In this document: positions 2,333 to 41,454 of the stretch, one piece after another
Layout: each line of letters starts with the position of its first letter
How positions within the stretch are numbered: the stretch's first letter is position 1
Source of the DNA: a virus
DNA length: 64,000 nt
Virus record (IMG/VR): IMGVR_UViG_3300045131_002298
Span: 1 to 64,000 of that record
Strand: one strand, 5' to 3'
Position numbers and translations under genes: made by a program
Notes under the pieces: model-generated
Told to the model about the DNA's origin: nothing
Seen by the model: the letters and a program-made list of their open reading frames with translations, nothing else
The model's database searches: none

Positions 2333-3253
2333 CTAACTAATAAGTCCTCCGTCTATGGACGTTATCTCAAAATCTAATGTGTTGTCATCGTCTTGATAGG
2401 AAACACTTATGTTTGTTTCCGTATTTCCAGAAATCATCGCTCCCACAGCATCCGCTACGGCTTCTCCGAAGTCTGACACTGAAGACGCAGGTATTGTCCC
2501 AAACCCGTAAGTGGTTGCGCCCGTCGCTTTTAAGACATGATTAGTAGTTAGTCCTGTTACCGGATGATTTGTAGTATCTACTAAATTATGATTAACAGGC
2601 GTTCTTGCATCAGAGAGACGAGAATCATTGCCCTGACAGGCAGTGTTTGAGCCTGTGCCATATGTTACTGAACCAGTAATTTTCCCTGTGGTATCATCAT
2701 AACTTAAAGCTAGGCCAGTTTCAGTATTACTCTCAACCATACCTCCAGCAATATCCTGAACCATCTCTGTTCTGTTGGTTACTAAATCAGCATATTCATC
2801 TGAAGATAAATGCTTACAATTGCCATCATTGATACCTGCTAGTGAGTTGTGGTATGTGTTACTAGCCTCGGTTACCCATATGCTGCCATTATAAACATAA
2901 TTAATATTTTCGTCTTCAACTCTACAACAAAAGCCCTCATCTGGACTAATAAAAAGCCAATCGCCTTCTGTATATTCAGCTATATCATATTCATGCCCTG
3001 CCCAATCACCAGTTGCTGGAGTATAGACAATGTATCTGGCACCTTCAGAGGGTAACGCAGGGGGAGCAGTCAAATCTCTATCTAGACAGCTATTTTGCCA
3101 ATCACGCCCTGTGTAAACAGTAGTAAACTCGTCCTGTATTGCCTCAATATTTGTATTAACTTTAATCCAAGCGGAAAAATTTGAATCTTCACTGCCTGGA
3201 GTTACATTAATTAACGTTGGTTCATAAGTCATCTGATATTCCTGCACCTGCAC
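2333..3253 (-). CDS. DUF2793-like tail structural protein (start may be ATG at 3232)
   Basis: APPALPSEGARYIV..ATGDWAGHE.DIA....W.F..P.EG motif; GNDSRLSDARTP fibre repeat. Confidence 0.75.
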   Translation of the reverse strand: MQVQEYQMTYEPTLINVTPGSEDSNFSAWIKVNTNIEAIQDEFTTVYTGRDWQNSCLDRDLTAPPALPSEGARYIVYTPATGDWAGHEYDIAEYTEGDWLFISPDEGFCCRVEDENINYVYNGSIWVTEASNTYHNSLAGINDGNCKHLSSDEYADLVTNRTEMVQDIAGGMVESNTETGLALSYDDTTGKITGSVTYGTGSNTACQGNDSRLSDARTPVNHNLVDTTNHPVTGLTTNHVLKATGATTYGFGTIPASSVSDFGEAVADAVGAMISGNTETNISVSYQDDDNTLDFEITSIDGGLIS

Positions 3254-8033: not shown

Positions 8034-11000
8034 CTACCAATCGCTGGCTGGTCTTGAAAGCATCATTTGTCCTGTACAAGTCCATGCGGTGTCATGCCAT
8101 CTATTGTTACCATAATTACCAGTATTAACTGCTGTATAATTATGATCCAAAGTAAGAGCTATATCCCCCACAGAACTTAATGTTCCGCTATGCGTTAAAG
8201 TTATAGACATGTTACAGTATGCAGTCAGTGTTTCCCAGTGTTGCTGATTCCATATATATACCGACCCACCAGGGCCTGTAACATAATATCCAGACCCATT
8301 CTCATCACTATCATACCACTCTACCTTTACTCCATTATAAGACCCTAAGGCAAAGTATACTGTGCTTAGTCCTGTAGACCACCATACACCTACGCCTCCT
8401 CCGTCCATATACCAAGCTACTGCTCCAAACCACGAGCTTCCTCCGGTCCTTGAATATGTATAATTTTTTGTAGGTCCGGTAACAGCCCCATACCAAGTAT
8501 TGGTGATATCGGCACCATTTGTGGGAATGTTAATTCCCCACTGTTTAGCCGTCTCTCCATACAGGCTAAATACATTCCATGTTCCAGCTATTTCATCAGT
8601 GTCTGAACACCCAATATATCCCACCAAAATCTTTGTGCTACCTTCTCCTCTAGTTATCATCTTAGCATAAGTTGTAACCGGAGCATCTGTAGACATAGTG
8701 ATATCTGTAGCAGATAACCATACATAGTAAAACGTGCCAGCACTTCCGCTAATTGTCATATCAAGCCCAGAATTTGGCAGTGTTCTGTTAGAGAGGTCTG
8801 GAAAGATTATATTAGGTGAATCTACTGTAGGGACAAGTCGCACATGGGTTGTATCAAGATACTCTAGGCGAACAGGAATGCCGGTCTGCTTTTGTTGGTC
8901 AAATGTTCCTGACGCCGCAATCATTGTTCTTAGGTTATTCAGTTCACTTTGTATTCTATTGCTACTCCAAGTAGTATTTGTGGCAACATTAGCATCCTCA
9001 ATCACTCCAGTAATGACGCCAATTCCGTCTCTTAAGTAAGTTCCAGAGAAGTCACCGCCATTAACTTTTCTTACTGAAATATTATCAACAGACACCGTAA
9101 ACCCCTGAGAAGGGACGAGTTCTATAAGAGAACCAGATCCAGCCACAAGGTTAGCCACAACGCTACCAGCTAAACTCTGTGAACTGCCGAGGGTATCTGC
9201 TAGTCTCGGAGCCACACTACCAGACGTGCATTCTACGAGAGAATACGAAACCTGATAGCAATCTCCTTCAGTGAGAGATATTGATTGCGATAGAGAGGCC
9301 GTTCCCGCAGTATGGACCATATATTTATTGTCAGAATCATATTCCCATCCAGTTCCTATTGTCCAATTTGCGTCTGTAGTAAAATCACCGTTAGTTACTA
9401 ATTCTGTTCCGAGAGCCACAGGAGTTAATTGAAGAGTGGCTACCCACCTTGCATTATTTCCAGGCCAGTTTTGTGAAATATATCCATTTACCTGGGGGGT
9501 GGTTGATACAAAAAGCTGACCAGCATAAGAACCCCAAAAGTCCTGCGAATTAGCCATATATACATACAAAAGCTGTCCAACAAGTGTTGAGACTTCTGGA
9601 CCGTCACTTAACGGAGACAGAAGGTTATCCTCATCATATATTTGCGAGGTATCATGGATATTAACCTTATGGACTAATTCTCTATTAGCTAATATTGGGT
9701 CCAGTGGATCATAGGTTAAGATACCCTCACCACCTACCATCAGTATTCCAGATGTCCCCTTCTTCTTTATCACCTTAAATTCATATATTGTATCTGGATA
9801 TATTGCTACTTCTGCTAACCCATCAAGGTGGGTAGCGTTCAGTGTGGTTTGTCTAATTGCCGATATCCCTGCCGAATAAATAAACTTACCATTAGCATCG
9901 GTTCTAACTTGTCCTATGTGCCTTGCCCAATAACCATAGTAAGATTCAGCTAACCTTCCATTATCGGGAGGTGTCTCTGACAGGAATAACCATAAGCGTA
10001 AGTCTTTATCGGCATTATATTCGTCATCCCCCGGCTGAAGAGGTCTTCCATCCTGTCCTTCAGGGTTACCATTATAAATATCAACATCCCCGCCTATGTA
10101 TACATAGTATAATGTGGACGGCAGAATGTTGGTATAAACGAAGCGCAAGGTTCCGTCAGGGTTTAGTTCAAGTCTAGTTGAGGTGGTTGTAACTTCTCTA
10201 CTCTGGCCTATATAGTATAAGCTTTCAGGTATGTATATCTGTCCATAACAACCATAATTTAGTTGTAATGTTAACGTGTCTTCACTTGTGAAGACCAGAT
10301 CAAAGTCGGAAAATTCTCTATAAACTTCTTTTAGATCTGATGTTCGAGATATTAGAGAAGCTGTAAGAATATTAACAAATTTAGCTTCATTATTAGTATC
10401 TATGGTCCCGACTAATACTGCATTACGACCAAGCCCCACATCACCTAAATAGTTATTCGACGGGGCAGTGTTTGAGCAGAACAGCCTCCCCCTATAATCA
10501 TAATCTCGCAACATAAATCCGCTGGATCTATCAGCCAGATAAACATAGTATGGGGACTGAACACGATCCGCCTGTAAAGTAGTTGTTGAAAGTGTCTGGG
10601 TAGATTCAGTCCAATCTAGGACCGGAGTAAATGAAAATACGCTGGTTTTTTTCGAGGCAGCTATATTTTGCTCATTAACTTTTAGGTAATCATACTCACC
10701 ATAATTAGGTCTTAGGCTCAGTTCATCTTCAGATACAAACGTAAGGATTAATTCTGTAGTAAAGCCTCTTATAAACCCGTCATAAGTAGTGCGGAACTGA
10801 CTTATATCAAAACCAATACCCTCGACAGCTACGGCTGCATTGGCTCCAGAAATGGCATTTATGATTGTAACTTTTGTATTCTGAACAGTTGTAAGGAGAC
10901 TGGTTATTGCTGCTCTATTTTCAGGAGTAATGGCTCTGGGGTATGGTGGGTTATCTACCCAACTCTCTAGGCCCTCTACTAATGCCTCCACGGCATTGCT

Positions 11001-13247: not shown

Positions 13248-13598
13248 TTATACTCCTACTGTTCCTACTATATTAGTATATGTAGATAATGCGGGTTGTG
13301 TTCCGCTTGTGTGAAAGTTAAAATTCACCATTTCAAAACCAGCCTGGACTGAAAATTCCTTATCATTTATTATTACTGCTCTGCCAGATACTTTCCAGCA
13401 CATCTTTTGAAAAGTATCTACTGGAACTCCGCCTTGAGGTATACCATAATTTCTGTAAACATGAGAAACTACTCCTTCTACGGTAGTGGGCCCATCAAAG
13501 GCAACAGCCCCTGACCCCGCAGCCGCTGTAGAACAAACCCCGGAATTATTAGAAAACACGCCCCCTGGCCCTACACCTGTTATATACTTACCACCCAT
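13248..13598 (-). CDS. Small virion protein, paralog 1 of 3
   Basis: MGGKY..CWKVSG..GFEMVNFN..TQPA. Confidence 0.6.
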   Translation of the reverse strand: MGGKYITGVGPGGVFSNNSGVCSTAAAGSGAVAFDGPTTVEGVVSHVYRNYGIPQGGVPVDTFQKMCWKVSGRAVIINDKEFSVQAGFEMVNFNFHTSGTQPALSTYTNIVGTVGV

Positions 13599-33166: not shown

Positions 33167-33646
33167 TTACAGAGCACGTACATTCCTCTTGTTGTAAGCT
33201 ATCTCAACGAATTCTAAAACATCGGTACTGTCATCTAAAGATGACTTAGCATTTACCTTGTAAGATACTGGGAATCCCCGATAATATTCCCAGCAACGCA
33301 CTGGATCCCCTGCCGGTCCTAGTTCAAACACACTAAAATTCCTCTGGTACTTAGCGGGCATGCCACCGTTGCCTGTATCAGGGTTCTGCGCCGTATTCAA
33401 CCATTCCTCGAAATACAAACGTTGGTCAGACCCAATTGGTACTACCGTACGCATAACGCAGTTAGAGAAGCCGATCATTCCGACTTCCTTACATACGTGA
33501 TTCTGGCCCGCGCCACTATGAACGGTGACCCCATGCGTCCTTGTTCCAGGCTCAAACTCTTGTACAAGAGCTGCCTCGAGTCCATTAATTTCAACACGAT
33601 ATTTAAAATCTTTTAACCGCGGTATCGCACAAGCTGTCGTAGGCAT
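33167..33646 (-). CDS. Tail tube protein (T4 gp19-like)
   Basis: FKYRVEING, K..G...F, W.Y...FP..Y, E.VEIAY. Confidence 0.85.
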   Translation of the reverse strand: MPTTACAIPRLKDFKYRVEINGLEAALVQEFEPGTRTHGVTVHSGAGQNHVCKEVGMIGFSNCVMRTVVPIGSDQRLYFEEWLNTAQNPDTGNGGMPAKYQRNFSVFELGPAGDPVRCWEYYRGFPVSYKVNAKSSLDDSTDVLEFVEIAYNKRNVRAL

Positions 33647-33868
33647 ATATTCCTACCTCCTATACTAATTATTTCGAGATGTGCACTTTCTCGATGGAAA
33701 ACTAATTTACTAATTAAATTAACAATTTAAATATAGACGGAGATGTATAAATTCCGCCAATAATAATTAATCTTTATTATAAATGTATATGTTTATTTAA
33801 TGCAAGCTAATTGTTTGTATTGATTAGATTTTTGGGAGGAAATTATTGGAAGAGTTAGGAAATAAAAT

Positions 33869-33899
33869 AAAAAAAGAGCGCGGGTTTTAAGCGCGCTCT
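33869..33899 (-). terminator. Rho-independent terminator
   Basis: AGAGCGCG stem followed by a T run on the minus strand. Confidence 0.75.
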
Positions 33900-34222
33900 C
33901 CTCGACGACCAAGGATTTCCTTTTTGTTAAATGAAATATTTGCGAAATTTGGTCGTCTAAGTCGAATAAAGTGGCTATTGCTTTTATCCTAATTATTCAA
34001 AAGGATCTCAAAATGGATGATGAAGTATACGCAATAGCCAAACTGTTATATAAGAAATAAATTGGCTACTAGGTTTAACAATAAAAGCTCTTTAAAAGGA
34101 GGTAAAAAACAATAGTAGCCAAACTGCAATTTCAAATAAGGGGCGCTGGGTTAATAGTAGAAGGAGATTTTATGCTATAGAAGAATTAGTTGTGGGCGCG
34201 CCCTTTACCCCTTGACTAATTT
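33869..34222 (-). ncRNA. Putative multi-stem-loop antisense RNA array (~350 nt)
   Basis: No ORF in the track between a promoter (34229-34257) and a terminator; four stems enclosing 36-51-nt loops complementary to SD/ATG-like sequences. Confidence 0.6.
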
Positions 34223-34228
34223 AAACCT

Positions 34229-34257
34229 AGTCTACCACAGACTTTAACAAAAGTCAA
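34229..34257 (-). promoter_or_regulatory. sigma70 promoter with upstream 16-bp site
   Basis: TTGACT-N17-TAGACT, extended TG. Confidence 0.75.
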
Positions 34258-34264
34258 GCTTTTT

Positions 34265-34280
34265 TTGCAATTGATTGCAA
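34265..34280 (-). repeat. 16-bp site, copy 5 (7 bp upstream of a -35)
   Basis: TTGCAATTGATTGCAA on the + strand. Confidence 0.9.
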
Positions 34281-34703
34281 TTATTTTTTATCACGCCATG
34301 TGACGTAAGAAAGAGCAAATTCCATATCAATATAGTCCTGCCCTTCTTCGCTATATAAATGCATTCTAATCATTATACTTTGAGTAAACATATACTCACC
34401 CAGCGAAATATTATACCTCAAACCCACATTATCTTCTGGAAAAATAGGATTTCCTTCAAATTGCATTTTACGTAAAGTGAGATTACCCGAATGCTCAGAC
34501 TTTTCTTCAAAATATTTTATAAGGTCTTTAGGTATTTTTTTACGACCAGGAGTAAGAGCGAACAAAGACACTACTTCATTGCGTTTCCACTCTTTTCTTA
34601 TGGCGCGCATCTCATTGTCAATATCAAAGTATTCACATGTTCCATTGACATCAAATCCCTGAGTGGATCCTGTGCCGTAAATATAAAAATCCATCCTCTC
34701 CAT
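34281..34703 (-). CDS. Hypothetical protein
   Basis: ORF with GGAG RBS; no recognised motif. Confidence 0.65.
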   Translation of the reverse strand: MERMDFYIYGTGSTQGFDVNGTCEYFDIDNEMRAIRKEWKRNEVVSLFALTPGRKKIPKDLIKYFEEKSEHSGNLTLRKMQFEGNPIFPEDNVGLRYNISLGEYMFTQSIMIRMHLYSEEGQDYIDMEFALSYVTWRDKK

Positions 34704-35212: not shown

Positions 35213-35288
35213 AAAAACAAAAGCCCGAAGGAGAACCCCTCGGGCATCGGGAAAGAAAGGAGAAAAAAATGAACCTTCTAGGGAAGGT
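35213..35288 (-). ncRNA. Putative ~75-nt anti-Shine-Dalgarno sRNA
   Basis: 5' hairpin ACCTTC/GAAGGT; single-stranded TCATTTTTTTCTCCTTTC; terminator GCCCGA..TCGGGC-TTTTGTTTTT. Confidence 0.65.
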
Positions 35289-35294
35289 GAATAC

Positions 35295-35323
35295 AGTATA
35301 CTTCCCTCTATAATACATGTCAA
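35295..35323 (-). promoter_or_regulatory. sigma70 promoter of the sRNA
   Basis: TTGACA-N17-TATACT. Confidence 0.75.
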
Positions 35324-36557: not shown

Positions 36558-36586
36558 AATATACCACAAATTTAAAAGTATGTCAA
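36558..36586 (-). promoter_or_regulatory. sigma70 promoter with upstream 16-bp site
   Basis: TTGACA-N17-TATATT, extended TG. Confidence 0.75.
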
Positions 36587-38475
36587 GCTTTTTTTGCAAT
36601 TGATTGCAAATTAAATTTTCTACTTAAATGATCTACACGAATTTCTTTCTCTCCCCCGCTCTCTACATCGCATATAGCATAAATATTATTTTTCCTCTTA
36701 TAAATCTCCCTTACCTTAAAATCCCCAAATACATCCCCCACTTTACAAAATTTTGTGCCTGCTACTTCTAATGAATTATTCTTACTCATAGTATTGGCAA
36801 CTTCCTTTTTAATACAACCACAAGATTTAATTTTACCTGAAGTTACATCATATAATTTTTTAATATCCTCCTTTCCGCAGTCACATAAACATTTAGCATA
36901 TTTTCGCGCCCCTCCCTCAGTATTCTTTATTCTTACCTCCTTAATTATAAGCTTATTAAATTTTTCTCCTACATGCGTTGAATTTTCGTCAATAGGCCAA
37001 AATGGAAATTCCTTTTCTTTACTTTCTTTAACCTCTTTCAATCTCTCACTAGTAACAGTCATTCTATGCTCTTTAATAGATTCCTTATGATAACAACCAC
37101 AGGATTTAATTACATTAAGATGGGAAAGATTTATAGTGGTTTCATTTCCACAATCACAAGCACACCTCAGTCTATAAATATAATTACCTTTCTCTGTTTT
37201 ACCTTTTATAACTTCTAACACGGTAAGCCTATCAAACTTCTTCCCTACTATTCCTTTAATACTATATTTTTTTTCTGAACTTCCTTCAGTGGTTTCTACT
37301 TTTCCGCCTCTTCCACACCCACAAGATTTCTGACGATCATGAATCAAATCAGAAAGTAATATCTCTTTTTCTGTTACCCCACAATCACAGTCACAAATAG
37401 CATAGCTCCTATTCCCTCTGCCTCTATCTCTAGTAACAATATCTTTTATTATAACTTTCCCAAAACGCTCTCCTATATGCTTCTGATCCTCTCCTCTAAG
37501 ATTATTTCTTCCCGGTGAATACACCTCATCACTAAGAATCTGCTCTACACTCATACCGCTTATATATCTATTTTTCAACGTATCATAATTCTTACCTAAA
37601 AATTCTGCCCACTGCCCAATAGTAAGAGACTTTCCGTCATAAGTTAAAATAATATTCTTAATTGCTCCTGCATCCCTTCTTTCAACTAAAGGAGTAGTAA
37701 GAATATCTTCCGGAGACCATCCTGCGTCATACCTCCAAACTAAAGCTCTAGTTTCTATTCCAGTATACAAGGACCATTCTGGTATAGATCTAACCTCTCC
37801 TTTATACTCAACAGTAATATCCTTTAAATTGCGTTCAGTTTTTCTTTCTCTAGGAGGTGCTAATAACTCATTTCCTCTTTTATGCTCCGTATGATATCTA
37901 GTTTTTAAAGTAGATAATTTTATACCCTTTTCTTCTGCCCACGCTCTAAGGGTCTGATTTTTTCCTTCCCATTCGTAATAGATTATATTGTCCCTATTTT
38001 CGGATTGTTCCTCATGCGTAACCCACCTACAATTCTCTGGAGAGTAATCTCCGTCATTACTTATTCTATCTATCTCATAATCATTTTTAGGCTCTGGCTT
38101 TTCCCCCATATCTAATAAAAAGTTTTCGAATCCTCTTTCCTCCAGCCACCTATCACATACCTTTGTACCTTTTAGCCCATAAAAGGGATAGCCATCACTA
38201 TTAGGATTATAGCAGCGATCTTTAGCATGGTTCCAAGCATTATACTCAGAAGGAAAATTTCTACTAGTTACATTAGGGTCTACAGAATTACGCTTATTAC
38301 ATCCACAGGAAGTGGATCTTCCCTTTTTAACACTATATAATTCCATGTCTACCACAGCCCCGCACTCACACAAGCACCTACAAAATCTTCTCCTGCCCTG
38401 CTTGTCTGGTGTTTCCTTCTTAAAAACCTCAAGGATAGTAAGCTTTCCGAAAACCATTCCTACTAAATTTTCCAT
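36583..38475 (-). CDS. Large modular HNH endonuclease
   Basis: EIDRISNDGDYSPENCRW; three HTH-like repeats; at least four CxCxCG..SCGC modules. Confidence 0.85.
   Translation of the reverse strand: MENLVGMVFGKLTILEVFKKETPDKQGRRRFCRCLCECGAVVDMELYSVKKGRSTSCGCNKRNSVDPNVTSRNFPSEYNAWNHAKDRCYNPNSDGYPFYGLKGTKVCDRWLEERGFENFLLDMGEKPEPKNDYEIDRISNDGDYSPENCRWVTHEEQSENRDNIIYYEWEGKNQTLRAWAEEKGIKLSTLKTRYHTEHKRGNELLAPPRERKTERNLKDITVEYKGEVRSIPEWSLYTGIETRALVWRYDAGWSPEDILTTPLVERRDAGAIKNIILTYDGKSLTIGQWAEFLGKNYDTLKNRYISGMSVEQILSDEVYSPGRNNLRGEDQKHIGERFGKVIIKDIVTRDRGRGNRSYAICDCDCGVTEKEILLSDLIHDRQKSCGCGRGGKVETTEGSSEKKYSIKGIVGKKFDRLTVLEVIKGKTEKGNYIYRLRCACDCGNETTINLSHLNVIKSCGCYHKESIKEHRMTVTSERLKEVKESKEKEFPFWPIDENSTHVGEKFNKLIIKEVRIKNTEGGARKYAKCLCDCGKEDIKKLYDVTSGKIKSCGCIKKEVANTMSKNNSLEVAGTKFCKVGDVFGDFKVREIYKRKNNIYAICDVESGGEKEIRVDHLSRKFNLQSIAKKA
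36594..36609 (-). repeat. 16-bp site, copy 6 (7 bp upstream of a -35)
   Basis: TTGCAATTGATTGCAA on the + strand. Confidence 0.9.
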
Positions 38476-38741: not shown

Positions 38742-41336
38742 TTATGAGCGTACCCACCCTGGCAAGTACTTCATGCTTTTATAGTTCTCAAAAGACTCTC
38801 CCGTACGCATGACTCCAAGTTCGAATTCGAGATAGTATATAGCGCGGGTTGGTTGTATCAAAGCACGACACCTATAAAGGCCCCTATCTATATCCAAACC
38901 TGAATTCAAAACTGCGTTTTTTAGCTCGCCTCCGTCAAAAAAAGCGTCCCGGTCCGTTTGAAGGCAGTAGTCATAGATGGCATATTTGTTTTTCCATGAG
39001 TCGAATGCAGGTTCAAGTACCCTATGAATTTCTCTCCATGTAACTGGATGGTTAGGTTCAAATAGAAAGGTTCTTAGTACTGGCATAAGTGTTCTATTAA
39101 CAACCGTTATGAATCTCATAACGTTTAGTTCACGAGTAGCAGAAGGGGCTCTTTGTGTAGTCCTCTGCTCCCAGAACATAGCTCCCTCTATTCCAGGCAT
39201 CTTTGATATCATCAAATAATTAATGCCATACTCTGCAAAAAGATCTGCATAACCAGTTGATCTATAATCCTGGATATTAAAGTCAATTCCTTCTACCAGC
39301 TGAACAGCGCCTCTTCTTGGGCCTACTGGCGCATAATGTGAACCATAGTCATTATCAGTTCTACACAAGCAGGAAGCTAAATGTCCTAGATTAGGTATAT
39401 ATCGTTTAGCAGAATCCCTATCATCAAAGACAAGAGGGCGACCAAACCACAAGGAAAATCTATGTGAATTAAAAGCAGGATGTGTGTAATTACCAGTACC
39501 CATTCTCCAGGCTACTGTATCCTCAGGATCATTACCAGGAGGAGTTGCTCCATAACCCATCATATCGCCACGATTCTCGCAATAAGTAATCATTGCATTA
39601 TATACTGTTGCTGATACTGTGCCAGGAACCATAAGATCCATACTCATGTATGTAGTATCTGCAGCATAAATGCCAGTTTGCGCAGCGGCATCCCCAATCC
39701 AGTCAGCATCATCGAACCCATCATTTGCTAAATAAGTATCAGCTGTAAGCCCCAATACTGTATAAGCATCATGTGTAACTGCCTGTAAGTGAATGTTTTC
39801 TGTATCATCGTTTGCTTGTATTTTGAGTTTATTATTATAGGAAGTAGCTGTAGCATCTGACAAACTATCATTAATTTGTATAACAACTTCAGCTAGAGTT
39901 TTAGCTGCTCCTGAAAGAGTAATGGTTTGAGGGGCGTCGGCTCCAACCTGAATCAGTAACGTATCATCAGTACCGGTAACAAAGGTAAATGGCCCGAGTT
40001 CTGAGCCCACAAAATAACCACCCTCTTCATCAATACCATTAGAACCACCATGCAAATAATCACCAGTACCATTAGCAACTGGCATATTAAGAGGCGAAGC
40101 CGTGGCAGAATGAAGATCTACAACATCCACGAGAAAAGACTGCTCGGCAACAAAGTTTACAACATATCTTTCACTCTCTGAATCCATAGACATATCTGGA
40201 TAATATTCTTCCATATCACCTTGTCTATCATTTATAATTCTGAGATTAAAATAAAGATCTTCATGTAAGAGCGAATCGGTTATAATAACCTTAAGATCGT
40301 CTCCCCAATCACCTTCATTAAGAGCGTCAATTCTAAGGGTTGCCTGCGAAGAACCAGCAGCAGTCCCAGCTACCTCGTCTGTGTCAAAACCAAGAGGAGT
40401 AAGAGCGGTACTTGACGAGAACTGAAGAGTAGCGCTTGTACCAGAAGTTAAAGTTTCAATTCTTACTTTGCCTTCATTTGCATAGACATATACATCTTCG
40501 AAAGCCTGCATTCTTTGTACAACTTGGCCTGTAGTAAGAGTAAAGTCGCCTTCTTCTCCGGCTATAGGAGCAAGAGTTAATGATTGTGTAGCTTCTCCGT
40601 CAACAGAAAGAATAAGGTTATCTGTTCCGGCTTCTGCGGCATCGGTCGTAGTAGTAAGTGGGAGGCCCAAAAGTGCATAGGCTGAATCAGTTATAGTGAT
40701 TACACCTAAAGAGTGGGTTATTGTGTTGGCCCAAACTTTAAGAACATATGCGCCACTTCCTTCGTCATAAACAGCACTGGCAGTCATACCCGTAGTATGC
40801 GCATTTATATAATCAGCAACACCCTGCGTGGTAAGAGTTCCTGTGAGCGTTAACTCCTGAGCTGTTCCAGCATTTACAGTAAAAGAAAGTTTATCTGATT
40901 CGCCTGTAACAAAAGTAAAGGGGCCAACTTCTGTTCCCAGAAATCTACCCGAGAGCTTTTGGGTAAGAGCGAAAGGACCTACTTCACTCTCAATCACAGC
41001 CACCCCTGCAGTGTCTGCTCTATCATAAAGAGTCAATTGTGCTTTAGTTGCTGTTAATGTAGTAGGATCGGCAGGATCATCGTAATGTGCGGTTCTGATC
41101 AGATTCAGTCTTGCGCCTTGTCTAAGCGCCATTTCAACTACTAGTGGATCAGTTGTCCAAGATACTTTCTTACCGTATCTTTTCCTATACTCTTCCATGG
41201 TAGAGATAATACGGGCAACACCCATCTCACCTCTTTCTGCCTTGATGACCATGGTTACATACCCACGAACCACTTCATCAACAAATAACGATAAGTCATT
41301 TATCCGCCATATAACTCTAGCTGCGCCAAGCGTCAT
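38742..41336 (-). CDS. Contractile tail sheath protein
   Basis: APVGPRRG, ELNVMRF, FLFEPNHPVTWREI, IQPTRAIYYLEFE; GGAGG RBS favours ATG 41336. Confidence 0.92.
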   Translation of the reverse strand: MTLGAARVIWRINDLSLFVDEVVRGYVTMVIKAERGEMGVARIISTMEEYRKRYGKKVSWTTDPLVVEMALRQGARLNLIRTAHYDDPADPTTLTATKAQLTLYDRADTAGVAVIESEVGPFALTQKLSGRFLGTEVGPFTFVTGESDKLSFTVNAGTAQELTLTGTLTTQGVADYINAHTTGMTASAVYDEGSGAYVLKVWANTITHSLGVITITDSAYALLGLPLTTTTDAAEAGTDNLILSVDGEATQSLTLAPIAGEEGDFTLTTGQVVQRMQAFEDVYVYANEGKVRIETLTSGTSATLQFSSSTALTPLGFDTDEVAGTAAGSSQATLRIDALNEGDWGDDLKVIITDSLLHEDLYFNLRIINDRQGDMEEYYPDMSMDSESERYVVNFVAEQSFLVDVVDLHSATASPLNMPVANGTGDYLHGGSNGIDEEGGYFVGSELGPFTFVTGTDDTLLIQVGADAPQTITLSGAAKTLAEVVIQINDSLSDATATSYNNKLKIQANDDTENIHLQAVTHDAYTVLGLTADTYLANDGFDDADWIGDAAAQTGIYAADTTYMSMDLMVPGTVSATVYNAMITYCENRGDMMGYGATPPGNDPEDTVAWRMGTGNYTHPAFNSHRFSLWFGRPLVFDDRDSAKRYIPNLGHLASCLCRTDNDYGSHYAPVGPRRGAVQLVEGIDFNIQDYRSTGYADLFAEYGINYLMISKMPGIEGAMFWEQRTTQRAPSATRELNVMRFITVVNRTLMPVLRTFLFEPNHPVTWREIHRVLEPAFDSWKNKYAIYDYCLQTDRDAFFDGGELKNAVLNSGLDIDRGLYRCRALIQPTRAIYYLEFELGVMRTGESFENYKSMKYLPGWVRS

Positions 41337-41454
41337 ATCAGTAACCTCCAATATCAATTATAAATTTGGTCTAAGCCTCTAAAAAATTATTAATTAGTTT
41401 TTTAGTATTAGGAGCTTAGGTAAATGAAAACATTAATTTTTAAGACATAATAAA

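Follow-up and report, generated by a model that had tools for sequence, protein, structure and literature searches.

The DNA analyzed here, referred to as the window, is a stretch of 64,000 nucleotides (nt) comprising positions 1–64,000 of IMG/VR record IMGVR_UViG_3300045131_002298, a 102.7-kb record (83% complete) of an uncultured, myovirus-like freshwater phage. Between its tail tube gene and an open reading frame (ORF) of 140 amino acids (aa) lies an array of four long-loop hairpins (33860–34280, minus strand), whose predicted product is an RNA of approximately 360 nt running from about 34222 to 33860. A preliminary description, made from the letters of the window, had proposed that the loops are antisense to Shine–Dalgarno (SD) sequences and start codons. 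The locus recurs in two further lineages, one represented by L004 and L005 (two IMG/VR contigs, one of which is the 98-kb record G001) and the other by L009 and L010 (two metagenome contigs). Based on the transcription signals, the folding of the RNA, metatranscriptome contigs, and the comparison of the three lineages, the array is very probably a genuine structured phage RNA, and, judging from sequence, it may well help to switch off the phage's own early genes. The features of the locus are collected in Table 1.

Table 1. Features of the hairpin array and its surroundings (window positions unless stated otherwise).
Feature	Position	Strand	Details
Hairpin 4	34138–34206 (stem 34138–46/34198–206)	minus	6+2 bp stem, 51-nt open loop with CAUAAAAUCUCCUUC
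Scaffold hairpin unit 3	34056–34127 (stem 34062–71/34113–22)	minus	constant base, 10-bp stem, 41-nt loop with ACCUCCUUUU
Scaffold hairpin unit 2	33965–34046 (stem 33972–86/34026–40)	minus	constant base, 10-bp stem, 49-nt loop with CAUUUUGAGAUCCUUUU
Hairpin 1	33904–33957 (stem 33904–12/33949–57)	minus	9-bp stem plus 5-bp inner stem; loop without anti-SD
Palindrome, 16 bp, TTGCAAT-NN-ATTGCAA	34265–34280		directly 5′ of the −35 box; invariant in relatives
Sigma70-type promoter TTGACT-N17-TAGACT with TG extension (extended −10)	34229–34257	minus	promoter scan; kept in 4/4 related sequences
Intrinsic terminator and RNA 3′ end	33860–33899	minus	sequence, fold, metatranscriptome contig end
Palindrome copies, window	19904, 24064, 24166, 32013, 34265, 36594, 42092, 51716, 55818		
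Palindrome copies, genome coordinates	69483, 74370, 79456, 88361, 94406		
Tail sheath gene	38742–41357	minus	
HNH endonuclease gene	36583–38475	minus	
Several small ORFs	between HNH gene and 140-aa ORF	minus	function not assigned
140-aa ORF	34281–34703	minus	directly upstream of the array
Gap containing the array	between 140-aa ORF and tail tube gene		634 nt
Tail tube gene, gp19-type	33167–33646	minus	array lies upstream
Second HNH gene	after tail tube gene	minus	

The promoter and the terminator that the preliminary description had placed at the two ends of the array were both recovered. The promoter was found by a promoter scan and is kept in the relatives; the RNA start near 34222 is predicted from it rather than mapped. 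The terminator is real and consists of an 8-bp GC stem (33875–82/33892–99) closing a 9-nt loop, followed by U7 on the minus strand; the terminator scan missed it because the scan accepted loops of up to 8 nt. No ORF in the array is conserved between lineages, and the 101-aa frame that crosses the L009 array is of low complexity and not conserved. Neither ARAGORN nor the cloverleaf test of the Rfam tRNA model identified a tRNA or tmRNA in the array. Rfam returned only sub-threshold chance matches for the array region, and at the gathering threshold, the whole genome gave two tRNA-model matches, both outside the array. With its own promoter, an intrinsic terminator, and no conserved ORF, the array has the makings of a small RNA (sRNA) gene and is noncoding, as originally described.

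All four tandem hairpins are present at the positions originally proposed, and the first three beat shuffled sequences. The whole 376-nt segment folds with a z score of −3.8, and hairpin 1, unit 2, and unit 3 reach −4.3, −3.5, and −3.1, respectively. Hairpin 4 alone, by contrast, is no better than shuffles (z = 0.24); eight of its nine stem positions are paired, and the stem is marginal. In the L004 lineage, this stem carries two compensatory pairs, which convert GGGCGC/GCGCCC to GGCUGC/GCAGCC. A repeat search and an alignment confirmed that units 2 and 3 are built on the same scaffold, with the common base CAGUUUGGCUA...UAGCCA(C/A)UUUAUU. Among the five scaffold units found across the lineages, 3 of the 13 stem pairs are altered on both sides, and 87.7% of the scaffold stem cells are paired, compared with at most 55% when the partner is slid. 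One stem pair is U·G on the minus strand and A·C on the plus strand. Additionally, an 11-nt perfect inverted repeat (34068–34078/34221–34231) links the −10/start region (ACTAGGTTTAA, minus strand) with the 3′ side of unit 3; it is restricted to the window lineage, the relatives being without unit 3, and it may reflect chance or an alternative pairing.

Over the three lineages, the array has eight loop versions, namely W_u2, W_u3, two versions of hairpin 4, L4_u, L9_uA, L9_uB, and hairpin 1. According to partition functions of the full RNAs, the CAU/anti-SD segments of the loops are unpaired with a probability of 0.73–1.0 in hairpin 4, W_u3, and L9_uA (0.84–1.0 for the hairpin 4 segment of the window) and of approximately 0.46 in W_u2 and L4_u. 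The proposed display of anti-SD and anti-AUG elements thus falls largely in predicted single-stranded regions.

RNA from the locus was sought in the assembled contigs of four freshwater metatranscriptome runs from a single study. In run X1, the 810-nt contig X1-5 spans 33860–34647 and ends at 33860 with 22 non-templated letters, which read AU + A20 on the minus strand; this end reads as a tailed RNA 3′ end just past the U-tract of the terminator. The next X1 contig (33540–33754) ends in an Illumina adapter at 33754, coinciding with the start predicted for a tube promoter that the promoter scan placed at 33789–33760 (TATACA-N18-TATTAT); this contig end suggests 33754 as the 5′ end of the tube mRNA. 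Between the array contig and the tube contig, positions 33755–33859 are uncovered, and the depth is 60–100 for the tube contigs and approximately 12 for the array contig. Contaminating DNA explains this coverage pattern less well than RNA does, and the pattern favors the minus strand. Runs X2–X4 cover the array only partially, and their uncovered parts are no evidence of absence. Collectively, the promoter, the terminator, the A-tailed 3′ end at 33860, and the U·G pair agree with the earlier assignment of transcription to the minus strand.

The comparison of the lineages reveals a constant frame with exchanged loops, as the preliminary description had predicted for related phages. All three lineages keep the palindrome, promoter, 5′ end, hairpin 1, and terminator nearly unchanged. 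Scaffold units number two in the window, one in the L004 lineage, and two in the L009 lineage; unit 3 is missing in the L004 lineage, and L009 and L010 carry another loop in its place. The flanking genes show DNA identities of 80–96% and the scaffold base an identity of 100%, whereas the scaffold loops are 44–63% identical between lineages, with shuffled pairs at 51 ± 3.4%. The loops had been described as unrelated, and they have indeed been replaced; however, the scaffold loops W_u2, L4_u, and L9_uA have a common core, CAU-N-UUGA-NN-(C)UCCUUU. The loop of hairpin 4 is 90% conserved, and its L009 version, which differs from that of the window at 7 positions, keeps the CAU at 9 nt from CUCC instead of 5. 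At its beginning, the L004 loop repeats part of the 5′ arm. With respect to the surrounding genes, L009 encodes a tube protein identical to that of the window together with a different array and an ORF-140 gene that is 86% identical, and L010 carries the same array as L009 with a tube protein 84% identical to that of the window. Because L009 and L010 share the array and differ in the tube gene, recombination has taken place right at the locus, with breakpoints between the array and the tube gene. Pattern scans of IMG/VR with the scaffold, the hairpin 1 loop, or the promoter/5′ end returned the same two or three contigs only, and among the INPHARED phages, the intergenic array region has no DNA match.

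On the transcribed strand, five of the eight loop versions contain CAU-N5-9-CUCCUU, which corresponds to SD-N5-9-ATG on the opposite strand; W_u3 has the anti-SD without CAU, L9_uB has a weak version, and hairpin 1 has no such motif. For the window itself, the claimed resemblance to mRNA start regions on the plus strand stands for loops 2 and 4 (SD-N5-7-ATG) but not in full for loop 3, which reads AAGGAGG without ATG, nor for loop 1, which is without an SD. SD-ATG motifs occur 9.6 times per kb in the array, approximately 40 times as often as antisense to the structural genes around it (0.25 per kb), and shuffles of the array reached the observed count in 0.4% of trials.

Start sites with a signature that recurs in the loops are concentrated in the early region of G001 (1–11.5 kb; L039 2500–10300, minus strand), which contains approximately 29 small genes of 40–120 aa. 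Many of these genes lie behind a repeated module composed of a consensus sigma70 promoter, a 25-nt leader, and a start site of the form AAAAAGGAGAU-N3-6-AUG. At least eight copies of the module are present, with the promoter TTGACW-N17-TATACT, the leader …AACAGTTGAGAAUA…, and the start site AAAAGGAGAU. The heptamer AAAGGAG occurs in 69% of the 29 early start sites versus 1% of the other 154 in G001, and in 1% of the start sites in the window's genome. Read on the plus strand, W_u3, L4_u, and L9_uA contain AAAGGAG, and both versions of hairpin 4 contain AAGGAGA(U); W_u2 is without the exact heptamer and is two letters off the start site of G001 gene 10001–10183. By synteny, the early cluster of the window phage is expected at or beyond the end of the contig. 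None of the eight G001 early proteins examined has a Pfam or PHROG family. Furthermore, GC hairpins (GGGCCCGAAAGGGCCC) lie between the genes of the G001 early region, in a layout resembling T4-type PeSL cassettes.

The same genomic island as the array holds a separate RNA unit of approximately 75 nt (35213–35323, minus strand) behind a near-consensus promoter, TTGACA-N17-TATACT. Its 5′ hairpin (ACCUUCCCUAGAAGGU) is followed by UCAUUUUUUUCUCCUUUCUUUCC, which is single-stranded and complementary to a start site of the form AAAGGAG-N7-AUG; the single-stranded CAU-N7-CUCCUUUCU repeats the anti-early-start-site theme of the array. The unit closes with a GC-rich terminator whose loop again reads UUCUCCUU, and it is covered by metatranscriptome contigs at a depth of 30–50.

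Start sites with an SD were called in the window's genome (167) and in G001 (183), and duplex energies were calculated for every loop. The preliminary description had expected individual loops to match the start region of a particular gene better than shuffled controls, and this expectation failed: no start site in either phage contig beats the controls. The best match in the window's genome, loop 2 with gene 13248–13598 (−31.2 kcal/mol), lies inside the background given by random start-site antisense sequences against non-cognate sites. Hairpin 4 pairs best with G001 gene 2794–3150 (−29 kcal/mol), which is not better than shuffles (4/45, 7/45), and its 14-nt exact match at genome position 95385 was rejected as a target since it falls within a coding region. 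G001 contains no second, near-exact copy of the L004 loop, hairpin 1 does not pair preferentially with any start site, and the start site of the tube gene shows only generic SD pairing with the loops, at no special energy. At the level of the class, pairing is better with early than with other start sites for W_u2 (Mann–Whitney p = 3e-6), L4_u (p = 1e-7), and L9_uA (p = 2e-5). For the cognate pair, L4_u with the G001 early start sites, the median energy is −20.2 kcal/mol, which beats 100/100 shuffles that keep the CAU and the anti-SD.

We tentatively favor the reading that the array RNA damps translation of the early genes as an antisense RNA with paired termini and several loops, a serious possibility that falls somewhat short of a probability. 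Transcription would proceed from the palindrome and extended −10 promoter to the intrinsic terminator and would yield a stand-alone noncoding RNA of approximately 360 nt. The short stems of its four hairpins (10–13 bp in the scaffold) would serve as paired termini, stabilizing the RNA and presenting loops of 36–51 nt. Loops with the anti-SD (plus anti-AUG), three of the four together with their replacements in relatives, would constitute the complement of AAAAAGGAGAU-type start sites of small, separately promoted early genes. The array RNA would then pair in trans with these start sites and block 30S loading, possibly triggering decay, so that early-gene translation would end once the middle genes are on. 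The constant stem base would enable the exchange of loops via homologous recombination. We place the targets among the phage's own early start sites because the loops mirror their stereotyped signature. Moreover, the array promoter is of a different class from the early-module promoters, a difference compatible with its RNA being made later than those of the early genes. The gene signals, the compensatory structure, the presence and 3′ end of the RNA, the replaced loops, and the signature that the loops share with early start sites are observed; pairing in vivo, repression, its timing, and the mechanism of loop exchange are what we infer.

Several observations weigh against this reading. In G001, the best single target of each loop never beats shuffles that keep the CAU and the anti-SD. 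With the same shuffles at the class level, the cognate pair alone clearly stands out: L9_uA gives 5/100 and W_u2 gives 7/100, and hairpin 4 is not significant. Hairpin 1, W_u3, and L9_uB do not favor early start sites in their pairing. Since the window's contig is without an early cluster, its three relevant loops are testable solely against the early genes of a relative, and the labels early and middle themselves derive from promoter types and gene sizes. The counts of covarying pairs are small because only three lineages exist. The RNA evidence consists of assembled contigs that carry neither strand nor 5′ end, with the 3′ end taken from one contig of one run. Finally, contig X1-5 runs on into the 140-aa ORF, so the array RNA may be partly a 3′ untranslated region (UTR) or read-through.

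The same antisense RNA could instead be aimed at host mRNAs or at genes of competing phages, with swapped loops retargeting the silencing. Loops are replaced and the scaffold is kept between near-identical phages, as under diversifying selection, and neither phage contig contains a unique target. However, the loops carry the AAAGGAG/AAGGAGA signature private to the phage early genes, and three of them have a common core, unlike unrelated guides. Nothing indicates host defense genes, the example given in the preliminary description, and foreign targets are considered unlikely. An RNA that is structured but does not act by antisense is distinctly unlikely, although part of the evidence suits it. 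It could be a scaffold or sponge for a protein (for example S1, Hfq, or a phage protein that binds the constant stem base) or a stabilizing 3′ UTR of the upstream ORF, with the pyrimidine-rich loops as ligand sites. Not only the pairing but also the sequence of the stem base and of hairpin 1 is invariant, which suggests protein recognition; the array contig is continuous with the 140-aa ORF; and the single-target statistics are null. Yet the early-class signature is hard to attribute to protein binding alone, the CAU stays at an SD-like spacing despite the change in the L009 hairpin 4 loop, and the neighboring 140-aa protein has weak Hcp/tube-like matches and no RNA-binding fold.

Two further explanations dispense with an antisense transcript. 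The inverted repeats might be exchange points of a DNA-level recombination relic, with the loops being inverted scraps of early leaders and the RNA having no function. The array has its own conserved promoter and terminator, its stems are maintained by compensatory changes, and its RNA is present with a defined 3′ end; moreover, the scraps come without an early-type promoter or leader (AACAGTTGA). These points make a relic improbable, even though several observations suit it: the same array stands next to different tube genes in L009 and L010 as a result of recombination, a partial copy of the 5′ arm opens the L004 loop, and the G001 early region is assembled from at least eight promoter-leader-SD module copies, like the T4-type PeSL cassettes, in which promoter and terminator stem-loops flank genes and mediate modular shuffling (PMC2839356). 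In contrast to such cassettes, the array has no gene within its hairpins, which show the leader in mirror image and not as such. Alternatively, the plus strand might be the active one, with the loops serving as start sites of minigenes of 2–23 codons (ML, MQ, MKYIRF, and MNHPQ, each followed by a stop) that would trap tRNAs as peptidyl-tRNA or titrate ribosomes, like lambda bar. Five loop versions do contain a canonical SD-N5-9-ATG followed by a very short frame, the ATG of L009 has moved and yet been kept, and minigene toxicity is an established mechanism (PMC2490762). This explanation is very unlikely nonetheless: no plus-strand promoter was found, the terminator is functional on the minus strand only, the A-tail lies on the minus strand, one stem pair would be A·C on the plus strand, and W_u3 has no ATG.

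To place the favored antisense array among known systems, we compared it with RNAs and regulators of similar architecture or outcome. The c4 (P1/P7) and sar (P22) RNAs are phage RNAs whose exposed loops pair with the ribosome-binding region of a phage gene and block its translation; each acts on one defined gene (ant/icd), in cis or in the same operon. The array, by contrast, combines several loops with an apparent target class of approximately 20–30 early start sites in trans and has no single cognate target. Membership of the c4 type was rejected, since a terminator stands between the array and the tube mRNA, with no coverage of the intervening stretch in the best run. Staphylococcus aureus RNAIII and the Rsa sRNAs are multi-hairpin RNAs in which several C/U-rich loops pair with the SD regions of several mRNAs; RNAIII, 514 nt long, encodes hld, has short UCCC loops, and is not known to have a constant scaffold or loops that are swapped from strain to strain. 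The array resembles these RNAs in the proposed use of several loops against several SDs and differs from them in its constant scaffold and swapped loops.

The closest natural architecture is that of the cuckoo/CcsR sRNAs of Alphaproteobacteria, which consist of two to four adjacent hairpins with a pyrimidine-rich, anti-SD-like loop motif, CCUCCUCCC (PMC4615179). Adjacent hairpins and a recurring anti-SD-like loop motif on varying stems (CUCCUU in the array) are common to both. The cuckoo/CcsR RNAs, however, are bacterial and have short loops with a single invariant motif, whereas the array is phage-borne, with unit-specific loops of 36–61 nt, an anti-AUG at SD-like spacing, and a stem base of constant sequence. 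The array does not belong to this family: the CCUCCUCCC motif is absent, its loops read CUCCUU, ACCUCCUU, or UCCUUU, and Rfam gave no match. Among engineered RNAs, paired-termini antisense RNAs (Nakashima et al. 2006, cited in PMC3694883) hold a segment against the ribosome-binding site and start codon between inverted repeats; their stems are 21–38 bp and the fully complementary inserts approximately 100–150 nt. The array likewise sets an antisense loop on a stem, but with natural stems of 10–13 bp, imperfect loops of 36–61 nt, and tandem units. In T4, the endoribonuclease RegB and the repressor RegA inactivate early mRNAs as a class via a motif in the SD/start region, GGAG for RegB (PMC9409239). 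The proposed outcome is the same, and the effector would be a base-pairing RNA here instead of a protein.

Other identities were rejected on the basis of repeats, strand, and neighbors. A clustered regularly interspaced short palindromic repeat (CRISPR) array, mini-array, or repeat mimic would contain at least two near-identical direct repeats of 24–48 nt with evenly sized spacers, whereas only constant segments of 11 and 13 nt recur; in addition, the variable stem bases covary across the 'spacer', which indicates pairing across the loop and not within a repeat. The CsrA sponge raised in the preliminary description as an alternative was dismissed, since its GGA motifs are on the strand that is not transcribed. 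A type III toxin-antitoxin (ToxI-like) locus is not supported either, as no identical tandem repeats of approximately 36 nt are present and the neighbors, where such a locus has an endoribonuclease toxin gene, are the tube gene and the 140-aa ORF.

A natural, recombination-programmable paired-termini antisense array, in which the constant base docks and exchanges while the loops act as interchangeable guides that silence the phage's own early, rival, or host start sites, appears doubtful and is on balance unlikely. If it existed, it would amount to RNA-only multiplex silencing with a scaffold-plus-guide logic. For large lytic phages, detail on early-gene shutdown comes mainly from T4, via the proteins RegB and RegA. 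An RNA that mirrors a ribosome-site tag private to the early genes and present on all of them would be another solution that is readable from sequence, with tag and mirror both predictable from the genome. What sets the present locus apart is the in situ evidence of its RNA and of a defined 3′ end, together with a constant scaffold of paired termini similar to an engineered antisense layout and the wholesale replacement of loops among near-identical phages. If the class is real, it would help to annotate the early genes and timing circuits of uncultured phages and provide a natural template for compact multiplex antisense tools.

The palindrome upstream of the array promoter, probably a regulator-binding site and at this stage a candidate for one, has approximately 15 copies in the genome, mostly intergenic. 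Only four of them (34280−, 36609−, 51716+, and 69483+) stand at a fixed spacing 5′ of AAAAAGC-TTGAC and a TGTGGTA-type extended −10. The resulting palindrome and extended −10 promoter class is common to the array, the island operon, the SSB/recombination operon, and the Ro60/TROVE gene with its Y-RNA/tRNA-like array. At the last of these (L036 5480–6270; genome 69480–70270, plus strand), the palindrome and promoter are followed by six tandem Y-RNA-like units, one of which has an embedded tRNA-model match of 38.6 bits; a second tRNA lies at L036 9980–10062, and the gene after the units has a start that reads like a Ro60/TROVE protein. The array itself was rejected as a Y RNA: the Ro-type scaffold …GGCGUAGA…UACUUC…GYUUUUUCC… (genome 69540–70260) is lacking in it, and the promoter type alone is common.

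All genes surrounding the array are on the minus strand. In more distant relatives, the tube gene follows the sheath gene after only 13–105 nt; the 5-kb island with the array is therefore a sub-lineage-specific insertion. Homologue searches gave 20 for the tube protein and 8 for ORF-140. The sheath protein has no close relative among cultured phages, its best matches being only 25% identical, and these provide no host clue. A scan of GTDB genomes with a tube profile returned only 44%-identical matches in metagenome-assembled genomes of Desulfomonile and Verrucomicrobiota; no host is assignable from them. ORF-140 has no Pfam or PHROG family. Its AlphaFold model (predicted local distance difference test score, pLDDT, 76) gives weak, Hcp/tail-tube-like fold matches, so that a second tube-like protein is a possibility. 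The same matches led to its rejection as a partner that binds or processes the array RNA, and the Atlas offered no usable lead. In the 5′ UTR of the tube gene (33674–33694, minus strand), a 6-bp hairpin lies immediately 5′ of the tube SD, and its stem shows a compensatory change, from UCGAGA/UCUCGA in the window to UUGGAG/CUCCAA in L004 and L009.

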